NCBI GenBank assembly: GCA_964016885.1
Contig: OZ024742.1
Location: forward strand, 284,952,001 to 285,016,000
DNA: 64,000 nucleotides
From: Eledone cirrhosa
Taxonomy: Eukaryota
Direction: 5' to 3'
The translations under genes were made by a program, and so were the position numbers. Positions within the stretch are counted from its first letter, which is position 1. Every line of letters starts with the position of its first letter. The notes beneath the pieces were generated by a model, which worked only from the letters and a program-made list of their open reading frames with translations, did no database searches and was not told where the DNA came from. This document shows, piece by piece, positions 791 through 62,618 of the stretch.

Positions 791-1399
791 TTGGCAGAAA
801 TTCGTAGATCAAAAGGTCGCAGAAATTCGTAGATGAAATGCTCAATCTGTTCGAAGAGAGCTTACTTAGTGTAAACAAAGTTTCATACACTTAACATGTA
901 TGTGCTACCAATGGTTTCGGGGTCCAGTTCTGGCCAACACTGTGTAATACAGGAGGCGCTTTTAAACTGGCCTTCTTTCAGGCACATGGACGAAAACACG
1001 GAAAAGGGAAGTTGATGTCTTTAGGCCAAATCTCATTTCCAATAGTAAAGAGTGATATTCGATGTAAGGGAGGTAATTCGGAGGGAAAAGTGTATAGGAA
1101 TTTATCAAATTTTCGTAAATAAAGGGAGCTAACTCTTCATATTCCAGGCAGAAAAACGAATGTAAAATGGATATATATATGTGTATGGGTGCCCTGAGTT
1201 TAATGGGGGTGGGGGACCCAATAAGTAAGGTACTCAATACTGTAAAGATAGTGTAAACATTATTTAATGTAGAAATAACTTCTAAAGGACTAGATCATTC
1301 AAAAGAAATCATCAGGAAAGCTTTCCTGGTGATTTATTTTGAATGAAACAGTTTTAGTCCTGTAGAACCTATTTCTATATTAAACATTATATATATATA

Positions 1400-2880
1400 A
1401 TGGCTTACAACAAACGACATTGGTCCGAGAATGAAATCGACCTCCTTATAAATGCATGGTTTTGACTGTCCCAAACTGAAAAATATAGACGCTTTATGTC
1501 TGACTGATATTGCCGAAAAACACAGCCCAAATATTTAATTATTGGTGAGATACTGCAGAAACAATACTGATATGGTTGATCTGAGCTCTATCATTGATAT
1601 TAATCCTCAACATGCTATATCGGACATAACGTTTGACGCCCCTGATGTCTTAGCGGTAATAAACGAAATTAAACACAACTCAGCAGTAGGCCCCGATAGG
1701 TCCCCTGTTAGTGTCCTGAAAGTGTGGCGACACCAACTTGCCACTCCTCTAACTAATCTGTGGAGGAATTCACTGGACCCCGGCTATATACCTGAAAACT
1801 TTCTGTCCCAGTTTTCAAAAAGGGAAACAAGTCCCGTGCATAAATTACCGTCATTTCTCACTCACCTCTCATATCATTAAGGTATTTGAGAGAGTGGTGA
1901 GATCACGAATAACTCACTTTCTTGAAAGCAACAATCTGCTGGACCCCAACCAACACGGGTTCCGTAATGGAAGCGACTGCCTAATGCAGCTCCTGCATCA
2001 CTTTTATGACATTTTAAGAGTTTTGGGAGAGGGCTCCAACACTGATTTCAGCAAAGTCATTTAGAGGGCTGATCATAATATTCTATTGAAAAAAAACTAT
2101 CCAGCGTTGGTGTCTCTGGAAAGTTACTGCAATGGATCAAGTGTTTCCTGACAAACATGGGTGACCGGACATGCCTTCAATCAGATCTTCTTGCTGTTAT
2201 CCAATGGCCGGGAAAAAACAATATGCTGCTGAACGAGGACAAATTCGAGTTAATCCACTTTGGAAAAGAGGATGCATTGAAACTCTCCTATTCCCTTCCC
2301 TCACGTGAAAGCCTCATGCCATCCAACAACATCAGTGACATTGGAGTAATTGTTGATAGCAACACAAGCTGGATCACTCATATAAACAGCAAAGTTGACA
2401 AGGCCCACAGAATATGTTCCTGGATTATCAGAACTTTCCAGTCGCGAGATATTCACACATTATCCTTCTCTTCTCTACTTTTGCCCGACACCACCTTCAA
2501 TAATGTTGTCCACTGTGAGCGCTACATTATCTGCATGATGTGGAAAATATTCCATTAGCGTTGCCCAAATGAAGTTGGCATCATCTTTAAAGTACACTTA
2601 AGGTTTGGCCCCCGTGCTGTCCACCCACAATAAAAATCAAACTTGTATCTCATAACAACATTACGACACAATTATTTCACCTCAACTGGTCCCGCTCTTT
2701 TTAACATTACACCGAAACACATTAAAACAGAAACTGATCCCATAAAAGTCATCCCGGATATGTCTCAGTAAACAACTCTACTTGAGTGGGCCATGGTGTC
2801 CAAATCCTGATTTGAAAGACTTCACCAGGTGCTGCTATTAAGTTAGAGATATGGCCTGGCCGAAACCTATCAGAGTTATA
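1400..2880 (+). mobile_element. CR1/L2-type LINE reverse-transcriptase fragment, decayed
   Basis: ORFs 1542-1880 and 2157-2558 plus intervening frames give SAVGPD, QHGFRNGSDCLMQLL, DFSK, LQSDLLAVIQW..NNMLLNEDKFELIHFGK and DIGVIVD..HINSKVDKA. Confidence 0.8.
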
Positions 2881-3558
2881 TATATTCTCAGTCTCTCTTC
2901 TTTGTCTACATTTACCTCCCTTACAAGCCGTATTTTTTTAAAAGTCGTTTCCCTTAAATTATGGCAACTTTATTTTTCCCTTAAATTGTTTTCGTTACAA
3001 AATACATTTCTAAATGCCAAGACCCCTCCTATTTAAATGGGTTTTCTCACTAATTACTCTCTTCCCGTGTTATGACGAGGATAACAGTCGAAAGAGTTAA
3101 CATTTACAGAGAAAATTAATTGCAGCGATTTGTTTTCTCAGTGAAATTTAGCACTCTAAAATTAGCCTCCAGCACTTCTTGCTTGGGTCCCTTCTACTTG
3201 GATTGCTTGCCAGTCTTTTTACCCCGCTGTAATCACATGCCCGTACTATAATAGTTTACAACAGATTACTATACTAAAACTTTTGAGCTCATTGGTGCAC
3301 TGTTGTTTATTCACGTCATCACTACACACCTTCATAGGAGAAGCAATAAATATCCTTGTTTTCTACGTCCCCTTACTCTTATACAGATTTCAGTCATGCG
3401 ACTGCGATTATGTTGGGGCACCACTTTAAAAGGATTTTAGTCAAACCTATTGACTCTAGTACTTTTCTTTCAAATCGCCAAGACATAAATAAACACACGC
3501 AATGGACTTCACAATTTCTGTCTACCAAATTTCAGTTACAAGACATTGATCCATTCTA

Positions 3559-3673
3559 GGCACCTCTTATTCACAGCGACAGCGCTTTCTTCAAGGTCCC
3601 CTTATACTAATTAAATTAAATTTCGTAGGTGGGGACCTTGAAGAAAGCGCTGTCGCTGTGAATAAGAGGTGCC
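3559..3673. repeat. Left terminal hairpin of the EVE (perfect 43-bp arms, 29-nt loop)
   Basis: ggcacctcttattcacagcgacagcgctttcttcaaggtcccc (3559-3601) is the exact reverse complement of 3631-3673. Confidence 0.95.
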
Positions 3674-3724
3674 CTATTATAATTACCACTGTTTACAAGC
3701 GGAATTGATATTTCATAAACTTCC

Positions 3725-5541
3725 ATGCCACGTAGAAGACGTGAAAAAATCCGCTGATAGAGGATACTATCGAAATACATGCGCCGGGCTACAATTTCCT
3801 AGGTCCAGGAACTAACATTTTCGACAAGTTAAAACACGAACCGAAAAACGAACTAGATCGTCTAGCCAAAGTTCATGACCTCCACTACACCGATCCTTAT
3901 AAAGATACTTGGGACGCAGATAAAGAATTCATCTAAGGAGCTATCAAACAATGCCCTTTGGGGATCTTATCAGCAGGAGCTACTTACGCTAAACACGCTC
4001 TTGGACTCGACAAAGTCTTCAGACCAGAACATTCAGATAATTATCGTAGTCTTTTTCCTCCTCCTAACAATCATCAAACTATGGCGGATTCGAAAGAGGC
4101 CGCAAACAACCAAGTCACGGAACAACAAACATCCAATCGAAGGGAATCTCAGACGATTCGGGAAACTTCAAACGAAGATTCATAATATCGAGAACTTTCC
4201 GAAACTGCATTAAAACAACAGACATGAACCAAGCGACAATCGACTTCAGTAAATTTCAATCTACTGGTGAAAAGTCATACCACAACATAGGACACTATGT
4301 GCAAGGTTTGGCAAAATCAAGAGATTACATCGTACCTTATTGGATGACGACCTGGATAAAAGCAACTCAATGGGAAACTATGACACAAACTGCTACATCG
4401 TACAGAATAGCGAAACAAGGATTCAAAATAGACGACATTATATGCAGCGAATGGGCAACACGTAACAACGAAGAAATCTTCGTAGACGCACCAACGCCAT
4501 ACTTTGAAGTCTATGTAGACACCGGCAAATACATCGGTCACGGTAACTTAAAACAATCAGCAAGTTACCAAATGGAGGTTTAAGGCTAACACAACCTTCT
4601 ACGTTCGAAAACATGGAATTACCAACATACGAATTCATATACAATGCACCTATAGGATTGGTTAACCAATACGTTTCGCCACCTATAGATACAACTGTAG
4701 AAAAAGGATCTACTTTATTATATAATTTCACAGATTGGAGAGATATGAGATCCAAAAAAAAAAATTAAGACAAGGCGATACATTCACACATGTATGGGAG
4801 AACCCATCAAGATTGGAAATTGGTTTAACTAATTTCAGTCAAAACCAAAACTATGCAGTCACAGGACTAACCAACACATATGGCCAAGCATTCAATTGGG
4901 GAAAAAATGCTCAAGTAGACATGACTTGGGATGGATGCTAAGACACAGGAACAGCACCATATGTAGGGACAGTGACAACAGAGAGAAACGAAGGATTCGA
5001 CGTATACAGAAGAAGAGCGCGAGACCCAACACAAGAAGACATTCATTACACAGAACATTCAAATATAACATTCGACCACCAAAAAACGAGAAAGGTGGCA
5101 GGATTAGACATGCTGGATTCGGGAGATATGGTGGTAGCAAACAGAACAGTAATTAACAAAGTTCTTTACACTCCGGAAGAACCACAGGAAATGGTTCTCT
5201 TAAATGTGCCAGTGGTGATAAGACCGAACAATTCACAACCATGTATCTACTTCACATTTGACCTTACATATTACATTGAGTTGGAATGTAACTATGAACA
5301 ATTCAACCACCCACAAGTAGTAGCAACGGCGATCCCCTAACCAGTGCCCAATTAGCGCCAGGTTGGAATCCTAGCCAACATTCATGTACACACCCAAGCA
5401 GGCATCTTCACGGAACAGCAGCCAAAAATAGAAAAACTGGGCGGACCATACAACACAACAAAGAATCGAAAAGACCGTTACAATTTATATCCGGGCACTT
5501 CATCAATAAATAACACGCCCACTGTAAAGCACTTTAGTTAA
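3725..5541 (+). pseudogene. VP1: Parvoviral capsid (VP1/VP2) pseudogene with N-terminal phospholipase A2 domain
   Basis: MPRRRREK[fs]NPLIEDTIEIHAPGYNFLGPGTN..ELDRLAKVHDLHY..DADKEF contains the Ca-binding loop and HDxxY catalytic motif. There is a premature TAA at 3934-3936. The jelly-roll-like segments YIVPYWMTTWIKATQWETMTQTATSYRIAKQGFKIDDI, LRQGDTFTHVW and TFDLTYYIELECNY follow. Several frameshifts and stops occur before the final TAA at 5539-5541. Confidence 0.88.
3875..4213 (+). CDS. Intact 112-aa ORF overprinted on the VP1 PLA2 region (+1 frame), with a predicted single transmembrane helix
   Basis: The ATG lies inside the catalytic His-Asp codons (cAT Gac). The hydrophobic run IQIIIVVFFLLLTIIKLW is followed by the basic RIRKR, and there are no internal stops. 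Expression is not shown. Confidence 0.5.
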   Translation: MTSTTPILIKILGTQIKNSSKELSNNALWGSYQQELLTLNTLLDSTKSSDQNIQIIIVVFFLLLTIIKLWRIRKRPQTTKSRNNKHPIEGNLRRFGKLQTKIHNIENFPKLH

Positions 5542-6647
5542 GTAGCAGTTCAAACTTCTATCGATATATTCACCGAATGGATAAAACATCACAACATCGA
5601 TGCAGAAAAGTTCGCTAGAGAAACATTCGAAATATTTCACAGGATACATCCCCCCAAAAATGGCTTCCACATTACAGGAGTATCCAACAGCGGGAAATCA
5701 TATGTTCTAAGATCTATATAGAAATGGACTTATGAATACAGGAAGAATGAGGTGCCAAGCTGCGGACAGTTTTACTTTCGGCAGTTGTATAGATAAACCA
5801 CTCATCTACACCGATGAAATGTGGTTTACGAATAACAATGTCGAAGAAGGAAAGTGTATACATATTAATGTAAAACACCAAAGCGAACGCATGCTGAAAA
5901 GGACGCCTAGTCTTAGCACTAGTAACACAGATCCATGGAGAGTTGTACCACAGGACGAACAAGCCCTGCGTAACAGATTATTTTATTACATGACACATAG
6001 ACCCATGGACAAGTTGAAAGAATGGGGCAAAATCGAACTCAATCCACTAATGTGGTTAACTATCTGGAAAACATATATTGACAAATATATAGAACACAAA
6101 TATACAGATATTTACTTGACAGACGACAAACCACCAACATCAGATTTATATGTCATCCCATCGGACTTCGATTCGCCAACAACAAAACGACAAATTAACA
6201 CAGTTAAAAGAAAATTGGTAGAACTTTACGAAACACCTAAAATGCAAAAAATACAAAATACATACGACGATTTAGCAAAATTTAGCAAAAGCGTGCTTAA
6301 AAGACATAGAAGAAACAGAAGAATGCAAATACGACCCAGAACAGGACACACAAGCTTGCTTAATACACGGGAGAATAACACCGGCTTGTAATTTTAATTA
6401 CATTAATGCATCAACTGATGATATTGAATGGGTTTCAGCGGAGGATGAATTATGACTGGGGGGAGAGAATTTTTTTAAAGAATACATTCAAACACAGATA
6501 CAGTTACCAAGAAATTATAAAAAAAATTGTTCATGGAATTTCCATAAAAAATTAGCAAACCAAGACCAAAGACAATCTGTTCTTATTTTAAATGATCTAG
6601 GTTTGGAATATTGTTTTGATTATCTACCCTTCCCTATTTGGACATAA
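5542..6647 (+). pseudogene. NS1: Parvoviral NS1 remnant: SF3 helicase plus C-terminal tail, N-terminal HUH nuclease missing
   Basis: Motifs are PPKNGFHITGVSNSGKS (Walker A, 5650-5700), a frameshift at ~5719, LIYTDE (Walker B), HINVKHQSERMLKRTP (B'), STSN (motif C) and ALRNRL (arginine finger). A 10-bp duplication at ~6270-6290 shifts the frame of a Cys-rich acidic tail. Confidence 0.88.
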
Positions 6648-6932
6648 TGCGCATGCACGCGACCAAAAACTTTTGTAAATAACCAGTTCAATGGTACGCG
6701 CATTGTAATCTTTTATATCTTTAATAAATTTTTAAACTTTATATTTGACTTTGTTATTATTATATATAAAAAGAGAGAGAGAGAGAAGGAGATGGCGGCC
6801 ATGACACCAGGGACCAGTGAAAATAAATCAGACTTTTGGGATGCGCGCACACGCGAAAATAAAGTAAGTTTCAGCAATGGCGAAGGTCAGGTAATATAGG
6901 CACCACCCAAATGTCGCTGATACTGGTATTCT

Positions 6933-6996
6933 AAACCTGTACTTTGTTTTCGCAATGGCCCTTAGCTCTGCCATTGCGAAAACAAAGTACAGGTTT
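6933..6996. repeat. Right terminal hairpin of the EVE (perfect 27-bp arms, 10-nt loop)
   Basis: aaacctgtactttgttttcgcaatggc (6933-6959) is the reverse complement of gccattgcgaaaacaaagtacaggttt (6970-6996). Confidence 0.95.
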
Positions 6997-8150
6997 GAAA
7001 AATAAATTTTTTAACTACCATCATCCAACCTTCTATTTAAAATATGCATACTTATATGAAATGAATTGGCAGAATAGTTAGGGTATTGAAAATAATGCTT
7101 TATGGTATTTGTTCCGATTCTCTGTGCTCCGAGTTCAAATCACACCAAGGCCAACTTTGCTTCATCATTTCAGAGACAAACGCTTTAGTGAAATATGTTA
7201 AATTTGATTCCTTGTGGGACCTTGTCTTTGAATAAAACTTTATTTCCTGCTGTTTCAGTCTCCTCAGCTGACAAACATGAATTTCACCTGTAATTCAAAG
7301 GGCCAACATTGTCATGCCAAGAACTACGTTGATGATACATGTGTGACAAATGCTCAGCCATTTGCACCATTGTTCTAATTAGAACACTCGCTGTCAGAAC
7401 TCAAAAACGTACATAACTTTATAAATGTATAAATGATTAATTTGGAGAGAGAGCAAGCAAGAGATAATTAATGTCAGGAACAGCCACTGATTAGAATTCT
7501 GTCTGGATGAAGTGTTCAGTTAGTGATTCAAAGAACATTACTAAATAAAAAAAGGCACTTGAAGTCCAGAGAGTACAGCAACTATAACAATCAAAATGAA
7601 GACAGGAGTTTGAATAAATCAGTGTATCACACCTGGAGAAAATTATTTTATGTTAATTGGAGCTACTGTCCTCCTAAACAGGTTGGAATAATCACGTTTT
7701 GCTCAATACTATCATTTTTTGGCATACTTTCTAGTTGAATGGCCTTCCTAATGCTAATCATTTTACAGAGTGCACTTTAGCATGATGCCAGCAAGTTGTC
7801 ATGTGTGATGAAACTAAAGTCTTTATCCTTTTTTCAGCAGTTTCTATGGTTGGATGCCTTTCCCCAAGACCTACCACTTTTCACATTACAATTTCTTACA
7901 AGAGCCACAAAAAGATATAACAAGAGTTAAATATAAATAAGCCTTTTCATACCAAACTTTCATGATGTTTATATTTTATCTAAAAACCTTCCACCATAAT
8001 TTTATGCAAGAACCTTTGTTAAATTCTGTTGTACATACTAAATAAATAATGAGAAAGTTACATATAATTAAATCCATCCAAATTCTTTATTTTCAAAATT
8101 ATTTGACATTTAAAAAAATATGTTGAATATTTAAAATAGAACAGGTTTAA

Positions 8151-9164: not shown

Positions 9165-62618
<53,454 letters not shown>

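Follow-up and report, generated by a model that had tools for sequence, protein, structure and literature searches.

The question that this locus raises is whether the order of the two parvoviral genes is as fixed as it is usually presented. Parvoviruses are taught as having the replication gene first and the capsid gene second, an arrangement that suits early/late control. In the window (the whole 64,000-nt stretch of DNA analysed here) a parvovirus genome integrated in host DNA lies at 3559-6996, internally deleted and bounded by hairpins; on one strand it reads hairpin-VP-NS-hairpin, the reverse of the canonical layout, in which NS (replication) comes first and VP (capsid) second. We propose with considerable confidence that it is a broken, integrated copy of a linear, ~4.3-kb virus that was natively VP-first, and that it kept both hairpins of this virus. 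The features are as follows.

3373..3551 (about), + strand: host dispersed repeat, cut at the left junction; of 40 genome matches scored, 39 lie elsewhere
3559..3673, no strand: left terminal hairpin, VP side, 43-bp stem; inner arm and loop 79% homologous to the C4 copy
3664..3673, + strand: conserved left-end motif AAGAGGTGCC; in 8 of 14 other family-A loci holding the VP start, upstream of VP
3678..3683, + strand: TATA-like box 47 nt upstream of the VP start, in the likely promoter of this gene
3725..5513, + strand: capsid (VP) gene, broken; 61-75% amino acid identity to the C2 copy
3772..3906, + strand: PLA2 domain of VP1; PF08398, E 7.4e-10, 39.4 bits against a cut-off of 23.9
5514..5545, + strand: deletion junction, ~0.9 kb lost; 913 nt of the C2 copy are passed over in the alignment, where the window has 34
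5545..6455, + strand: NS1 remnant, SF3 helicase and C-terminal tail; PF01057, E 2.5e-4, 20.5 bits against a cut-off of 20
6792..6899, + strand: conserved right-end block beginning ATGGCGGCCATGACACC; also in L026, L034, L044 and L075
6899..6933, + strand: right-end motifs GGCACCAC and TATTCTA, directly before the hairpin; the pair also in L026, L033, L037, L021 and L075
6933..6996, no strand: right terminal hairpin, beyond NS, 27-bp stem; from its fold and comparable positions in two copies
7063..7170, + strand: host high-copy short repeat of the right flank; many matches of ~80% identity, depth ~900

Identity and extent of the element

The initial annotation had assigned a parvoviral origin to this DNA from a few motifs, and these are present as described: GYNFLGPGT and HDLHY share the frame 3745-3936, and the SF3 motifs comprise GVSNSGKS (Walker A, 5677-5700), LIYTDE (Walker B, 5801-5818) and, in the frame 5711-6391, STSN and LRNR. 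The profile searches it had recommended for the two genes bear the assignment out, the PLA2 stretch and the helicase piece of the window each scoring above the cut-off of its Pfam family, and the capsid fold of a paralogue model is likewise parvoviral. The VP gene has in-frame stops near 3935 and 4940 and frame changes near 3740, 4130, 4550, 4760 and 5350, and the NS1 remnant has frame changes near 5720 and 6270; the gene pieces are nevertheless identifiable without repair of the frameshifts. The capsid core gave no Pfam match, either with the window pieces or with the paralogues, and a PDB sequence search returned matches restricted to the PLA2 stretch. In the paralogues, PLA2 and the capsid core lie in one shared open frame. 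A low-confidence model of the C19 paralogue capsid (mean pLDDT 43.8) retrieved parvovirus capsids in 50 of the 50 Foldseek hits listed (best E 7.8e-8) and aligned with VIA at Z 11.5 and rmsd 4.9 (230 aligned), the top 18 entries being parvoviral; as modelled, the paralogue VP thus has the fold of the parvoviral single jelly roll. For NS, longer paralogues match PF01057 at E 1e-16, the NS profile matches AAV Rep40/68 at E 1e-15, and the Atlas score between NS and NS1 clusters is 0.97; the end of the NS1 tail (6455) was set by eye against P0002.

The element was thought to be near genome-scale, and in so far as both hairpins, VP and the helicase are kept, it is; about 0.9 kb is lost, however, including the putative nuclease half of NS1. 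What is missing is the remaining VP-NS spacer together with NS1's N-terminal half, the NS match beginning only at residue 265 of 509, and the deletion junction is spanned without differences by a 2008-nt short-read contig. Adding ~0.88 kb to the span of 3.44 kb gives an estimated genome of ~4.3 kb, of which the window copy therefore represents ~80%. Internal deletions with different breakpoints occur in L021, L024, L030, L033 and L058. In paralogues, the NS N-terminus has an HFH motif and a conserved Tyr; in Atlas it groups exclusively with rolling-circle or origin-binding domains, at scores of only 0.80-0.82, and one member matches Rep_OBD weakly (E 0.005), so that the putative HUH-type nuclease domain is offered as a lead only. 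The description of a compositionally distinct island applies to AT skew (between +0.14 and +0.42 across 3601-6600; -0.05 to -0.10 immediately to the left and ~0 immediately to the right) but not to GC content (33-43%).

Terminal hairpins and host junctions

The arms of the left stem (3559-3601/3631-3673, 43 bp, closing a loop that is itself partly paired) and of the right stem (6933-6959/6970-6996, 27 bp) pair with zero mismatches and share no inverted repeat, as expected from the earlier description of two perfect, unrelated hairpins. Their folding z on the + strand is -19.0 (left) and -7.8 (right), with none of 200 shuffles as good. Of 60 host stretches of 700 nt drawn at random, 6 hold palindromes of similar score, so that long palindromes are no rarity here; it is therefore by position and by the conserved motifs next to them, not on energy alone, that we take the hairpins for termini. 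The distance from NS to the right hairpin is 541 nt here and 538 and 579 nt in two other copies; elsewhere in family A, the large group of copies to which this one belongs, a hairpin survives at the expected place in only two of the 14 left ends and two of the 18 right ends. The termini differ in sequence, structure and sets of conserved motifs, in agreement with the proposed heterotelomeric nature of the virus, and have one short motif in common in inverted orientation, GGCACCAC being an inverted copy of the core of AAGAGGTGCC. The left-end motif is a candidate origin or NS1-binding element. Fold-back junctions with the end motif on both arms exist for the left end (L043) and the right end (L033); they resemble rolling-hairpin intermediates and so are compatible with the predicted rolling-hairpin replication (mechanism per PMC6537627) of a linear ssDNA genome. 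A palindrome between VP and NS in L023 was rejected as a telomere: it is made of VP coding sequence, which indicates that fold-back events also create hairpins. Rfam matches of miRNA type to the hairpins were sub-threshold and were dismissed as matches of shape.

On the host side, the repeat that the element was said to interrupt is indeed present at its left edge; loose ends of short-read contigs carry the continuation of this repeat, and since this is missing from the right flank, the repeat is truncated rather than interrupted. No target-site duplication is visible at the junctions of the element. The neighbouring gene reported at ~2.2 kb, which we take to be VCP from its AAA motifs and C-terminal tail, has its exons on the minus strand; the right hairpin is 2.17 kb away from its stop codon (9165-9167). 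Short-read contigs from one sample span both host-element junctions with zero differences and flank-like depth and probably derive from the assembled individual; a second sample of the same study has identical internal pieces of the element. The element is therefore not an assembly chimera, and germline integration in this sample is probable. A short 'joint' (3538-6954) was rejected as an empty allele, one side being only 24 letters and lying inside repeats.

Origin of the capsid-first order

The locus, a probable endogenous viral element of parvoviral type, is no lone, rare fossil: family A counts at least 27 regions in the genome, the window copy being one. Family-A copies share ~72% identity and have been under strong purifying selection relative to one another (dN 0.15-0.27 and dS from 0.8 to saturated for the window copy against the C2 and C18 copies); having diverged under purifying selection, they represent separate integrations. 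A distant family B is also VP-first. In 47 stretches, VP and NS lie no more than 1.5 kb apart in 33 pairs, of which 28 are of the same family and five are mixed; VP precedes NS in 23 of the same-family pairs (12 in family A, 11 in family B), and all five same-family cases of NS then VP are truncated genes joined together or genes at least 720 nt apart. From the VP C-terminus to the NS N-terminus the gap is 16-199 nt in the family-A copies L016, L023, L026 and L041, leaving no room for telomeres in three of these four. The many independent copies with a common VP-first order likely record an undescribed 'capsid-first' parvovirus lineage that entered the germline repeatedly. The VP-first order, the ~0.9-kb loss and the multi-region family are absent from the initial annotation.

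In the proposed life cycle, rolling-hairpin replication would start from two dissimilar telomeres that have one inverted cis motif in common. The VP promoter would lie immediately inward of the left hairpin, likely with the TATA-like box at 3678-3683; such a box lies 32-47 nt upstream of VP in seven of eight other copies (position -47 in C2, C4 and C8; -32 to -36 in the remaining four). A separate promoter, placed in the short spacer between VP and NS, would drive NS1, mirroring the two-promoter layout that is usual in parvoviruses. The putative nuclease half of NS1 may have been lost in a helper-dependent defective genome or by deletion at or after insertion; break repair would then have joined the genome to host DNA, cutting off the host repeat and leaving no target duplication, after which the window copy, which cannot make NS1, would have decayed neutrally.

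An alternative that we consider unlikely is that the virus was circular, or was transcribed from circles or head-to-tail concatemers, so that 'VP first' is an artefact of the opening point. In that case the right-end block, which follows a TATA-like run and whose ATG and open frame of 35 codons point towards the right hairpin, would serve as a leader exon and be spliced to NS over the joined ends, as in family B, where a leader, splice donor and splice acceptor are placed around VP and NS is likely made by splicing VP out as an intron. The outward direction of the block, the GTAAGT that follows it in the window, L026, L037 and L021, and the absence of a splice donor near the VP start in nine of nine family-A copies would all suit such a mechanism. 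Conservation of a right-end donor is weakened, however, by the lack of the donor-like hexamer in L075, the closest right-end homologue, and in L033; moreover, the window copy is bounded by two different hairpins, left-left and right-right fold-back junctions exist, no clean right-end-to-left-end junction was found (one candidate shows a transposon and a deletion), and TATA-like runs occur just before NS in C2 and C18, the only copies in which such runs are clear in the VP-NS spacer.

Less probable still are two further explanations. In one of them, a canonical NS-VP parvovirus formed concatemers that were rearranged at integration, and the hairpins arose later from host fold-back; many loci are indeed scrambled concatemers mixing families A and B, with the five mixed adjacencies given above, and palindromes are common. 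This reading is largely refuted by the tight VP-stop/NS-start junction that recurs in independent sub-lineages of both families, by the end motifs placed before VP and after NS, and by the failure to find, within one family, an intact NS end closely joined to the intact start of VP. Equally remote is a parvovirus-derived mobile element spreading within the genome in place of repeated infections: elements do cluster on C2, C12, C25 and C841, and family-B VP copies are 99.7-100% identical on four contigs, for which one recent infection accounts equally well. The divergence and purifying selection seen among family-A copies, the retention of both capsid and PLA2 and the lack of target duplication argue against it.

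Known parvoviruses and significance

Assignment to the family Parvoviridae rests on the SF3 domain (PMC13426907), and the layout is a descriptive trait, not a family criterion, although a review describes the NS-left, VP-right arrangement for all parvoviruses (PMC11357303). As described in PMC6537627 and PMC11357303, monosense heterotelomeric Parvoviridae resemble the element in their size of 4-6 kb, terminal hairpins, SF3 NS1, jelly-roll VP with a PLA2 at its N-terminus (a trait of most family members) and two cassettes on one strand; the element differs in having VP first on the coding strand, an NS clade without named members and stems that are short remnants of 64-115 nt. A printed precedent for VP upstream of NS exists in two 7-kb goose-cloaca genomes (MT138329 and MT138334, of 7244 and 7497 nt; Shan et al. 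2022, PMC9001828), in which the structural ORF is upstream of the non-structural one; these have an extra transglutaminase-like ORF, whereas the element, compared with them by description only, belongs to a ~4.3-kb virus of two cassettes in a known host genome.

All of the 15 close matches are Logan proteins without names or flanking context, and the IMG/VR and JGI metagenome scans contained neither relatives with flanking DNA nor a free-living relative with the VP-first order. No RNA dataset was listed as carrying the sequence, a result that does not bear on expression. Among the 20 distant matches whose names were looked up, the best named NS match is 'Turdus hortulorum parvoviridae sp.' (QTE03882.1), with 35% identity over 189 helicase residues; its likeness to family-A NS is confined to the helicase, with no alignment beyond, and it falls outside the family-A clade. 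The genus criterion, as quoted in PMC9001828, is NS1 identity of at least 35-40% over >80% of the length. Of two helicase trees built without an ICTV reference set, a FastTree covered 125 of 126 sequences; in the other, on 38 of 125 helicase rows, families A and B each form a clade at 100/100 on a backbone without firm branching, and an AU test bearing on a single origin of the two families gave p 0.126, which speaks neither for nor against such an origin.

We lean slightly towards the view that this host holds the record of a compact 'capsid-first' parvovirus group, possibly of subfamily level, made up of two deeply split families, A with mirror-image promoters and B with VP inside an NS1 intron and of recent entry. 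On this view the germline entry of family B is so recent that a living virus should still circulate, with possible present-day infections of animals in the wild or on farms. A reversed order with both ends kept and a known host genome would mean that the parvovirus layout is not fixed, and a VP-first lineage makes testable how NS1 gets produced first. The host group, likely cephalopods, would gain a parvovirus record with dozens of datable insertions.

Literature searches found no cephalopod parvoviral elements in print, and the main text of Francois et al. 2016 (PMC5013282) names no octopus, squid or cephalopod. The mollusc parvovirus-related sequences described there are invertebrate endogenous elements that are Parvovirinae-like and outside known genera, and the Atlas matches of our element suggest the same placement for it. 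The SwaBA megaparvovirus 1 lineage and beetle elements also have a PLA2 ORF upstream of NS1, and their complete endogenous copies likewise reveal the host; unlike our element, the lineage is described as ~6.4 kb and likely homotelomeric, with VP downstream of NS1 and a separate PLA2 (PMC13426907). Endogenous densoviruses of tapeworms are multi-copy and concatemeric like the present family, but their order is NS then VP (PMC6880638).

The capsid-first element and its place in host DNA

The element (3559-6996, plus strand) is a real endogenous parvovirus whose parent functions, or once functioned, as heterotelomeric Parvoviridae do, though with an unusual capsid-first genome; the window copy is internally deleted and dead. 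Its main value lies in a gene order common to dozens of copies, more than in its own completeness. The island and motifs described in the initial annotation lie where it placed them, and the unrepaired gene pieces match parvoviral PLA2 (E 7.4e-10) and, barely above the cut-off, Parvo_NS1 (E 2.5e-4). For the capsid (VP), a model was made of the open VP frame of the C19 paralogue (mean pLDDT 43.8); all 50 rows that Foldseek listed for it are capsid entries of parvoviruses, as are the top 18 rows of VIA (Z 11.5, rmsd 4.9, 230 aligned). The perfect terminal hairpins are borne out, all stem bases being paired and shuffled sequences folding far more weakly (200 shuffles; z -19.0 left, -7.8 right):

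3559-3601/3631-3673: left stem, 43/43 bases paired
6933-6959/6970-6996: right stem, 27/27 bases paired

The island is compositionally distinct by AT skew but not by GC, and the host repeat at the junction, present on the left flank, is cut short there; no target duplication is visible at the insertion site. Window 1381-2700, left of the element, holds what we take, from its motifs, to be decayed LINE-like reverse transcriptase frames. As annotated, VCP is the neighbour, its end 2.17 kb away on the opposite strand. The VCP/p97 exons occupy window 9165-28550 on the minus strand, with the element antisense beyond the stop, so read-through would yield antisense viral RNA.

Window 3000-7600 is covered, with zero differences, by overlapping short-read contigs that come from two runs of one sample. 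One contig spans the left junction, and a single 2008-nt contig spans the internal VP-NS junction as well as the right one, at a depth of 10-15, similar to the flank. Both runs probably come from the assembled individual itself; their contigs rule out the chimeric assembly that would have undone the initial reading, and speak for integration in that animal rather than for inheritance. Internal pieces identical to the element also occur in a second sample of the same study, X4, whose type is unrecorded and which amounts to 88 million letters. One X4 contig is identical over window 5519-6710 at depth 36, with the flanks hardly covered; it starts just past the VP stop and ends just short of AATAAA, and such contigs show neither RNA ends nor strand.

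Gene order, genome ends and expression

In the window element VP lies 5' of the replication gene (NS) on one strand; a review places NS left and VP right in all parvoviruses (PMC11357303). The 47 stretches examined contain 33 VP/NS adjacencies no more than 1.5 kb apart, 28 of them within one family, and 23 of these 28 read VP then NS; the remaining five join truncated genes or have a gap of at least 720 nt. VP end and NS start are separated by 16-199 nt in four copies of family A (the window element and its relatives), and on contig C18 NS starts directly after VP and is then split by a host insertion.

The ends carry the same polarity. Of the 14 other copies that retain a VP start, 8 have a 10-letter motif directly 5' of VP; in the window and in L047 this motif marks the left hairpin's inner margin. 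Its inverted core, with TATTC(T/C)A 27-42 nt after, lies just inside the right end in the window and in L026, L033, L037, L021 and L075, loci picked for having the motif. At the left, 2/14 copies keep a hairpin no more than 200 nt from VP; among 18 right ends tested, two copies have hairpins 538 and 579 nt past NS (541 in the window). The background, 700-nt random host stretches with palindromes of comparable score, is 6/60. L043 (left end) and L033 (right end) contain fold-back junctions in which each arm carries the end motif, as expected of rolling-hairpin intermediates (PMC6537627). At the level of sequence, the motifs before VP and after NS confirm the VP-first polarity.

A TATA box lies 32-47 nt 5' of the VP start in seven of eight other family-A copies, aligned with window 3678. 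A splice donor close to the VP start was sought in nine family-A copies and found in none. The C2 and C18 copies have a TATA-like run in the VP-NS spacer about 40-50 nt 5' of NS. The simplest reading would be two promoters, a left one for VP and an internal one for NS1, a mirror image of the common arrangement. A circular or concatemer-dependent genome is improbable, though it could draw on a conserved right-end block that faces the hairpin. This block (window 6792-6899) could be a small accessory gene or a YY1-like cis element. L075 (C6:8.278 Mb) is a lone right-end homologue without NS within 1.5 kb; its 37-codon frame resembles that of the window block and ends at the same motif.

Internal deletion and divergence of copies

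The element had been called near genome-scale, which holds for both hairpin ends but not for NS, whose match starts only at residue 265 of 509. In DNA alignment, 913 nt of the C2 copy are replaced by 34 nt in the window; together these observations put the parent genome at about 4.3 kb. The missing part, as seen in paralogues and relatives from Logan, contains an HFH motif together with a conserved tyrosine and is likely an HUH nuclease, a label to be taken as a lead. Other copies also have internal deletions, at different breakpoints. Defective genomes of MVM and AAV carry deletions while keeping their ends, and the varied deletions fit such genomes; alternatively, the NS part may have been deleted at or after insertion.

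The paralogous copies that the initial annotation proposed to seek exist: the 3.0-Gb genome gave at least 38 helicase, 21 capsid and 20 PLA2 matches and, with neighbouring matches merged, at least 27 separate family-A regions. The nearest copies share about 72% DNA identity with the window element, and against C2 and C18 dN is 0.15-0.27 with dS from 0.8 to saturated. Low dN against such dS indicates, from codon comparison, that the copies diverged as replicating viruses subject to purifying selection and are separate integrations. The window copy has two in-frame stops in 790 codons, which would give a very rough 1.6% of neutral change since insertion, from two events only; some seven frame changes come on top of this. 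Host mobile elements, whose transposase types we assign presumptively, lie in or between viral genes of other copies (L017:5330-6130, L021:2920-4560, L016:1788-3071).

Relatives in print and a second family

All 15 close NS relatives (43-63% identity) and all three VP relatives (38-39%) are unnamed Logan proteins. A profile reached 1506 proteins at E 0.001; among 20 distant ones looked up three had names, the closest being NS of an unclassified bird-associated parvovirus (35% over the helicase). A hypothetical protein from the clam Mactra antiquata is also among the three. Shan et al. describe two goose cloacal genomes (7244 and 7497 nt) with VP upstream of NS (PMC9001828), so the order has precedent in print; compared by description, they resemble the window element in order but carry an extra ORF, host unknown. 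In the megaparvovirus lineage a PLA2 ORF lies 5' of NS1 yet VP 3' of it (PMC13426907), tapeworm elements read NS then VP (PMC6880638), mollusc parvovirus-related sequences fall outside known genera, the main text being without cephalopods (PMC5013282), and the portions of PMC6085071 and PMC6950620 consulted hold nothing bearing on gene order. The open-access literature searched yielded neither cephalopod parvoviral elements nor a compact VP-first lineage.

Family B, a separate and distant clade in the same genome, likewise has VP then NS:

L026:344-3646, L027, L044, L053-L058: family-B loci, on contigs C12, C2, C10, C14, C998, C5, C25

A and B share 23% identity along 488 NS residues and 27% along 255 VP residues. 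In trees without the ICTV reference set, family A forms a long-branched clade (100/100), as does family B a clade (100/100); a single origin of both was not rejected (AU p 0.126), the backbone being unresolved. In family B a GTRAGT donor lies 10 nt 5' of the VP start in 6/7 copies, a pyrimidine-rich AG acceptor 36-42 nt past the VP stop in 5/5 (background 3/25 windows). The reading frame set by a leader ATG, 54 nt 5' of the donor, agrees with that of NS in 5/5; NS is thus likely spliced, with VP serving as its intron, which would be a different answer to the VP-first order from the one proposed for family A.

Family-B VP is 99.7-100% identical across L053, L054, L055 and L056 (C10, C14, C998, C5), and L053 contains a head-to-head palindrome with 957-bp arms centred about 400 nt 5' of VP. 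These integrations look very recent and resemble replication intermediates. A G-rich motif is common to the left and right family-B hairpins. A and B are joined within single loci (L026, L031, L032, L038, L048; five mixed adjacencies), and parvoviral clusters occur on C2, C12, C25 and C841, which suggests co-infection or insertion hotspots.
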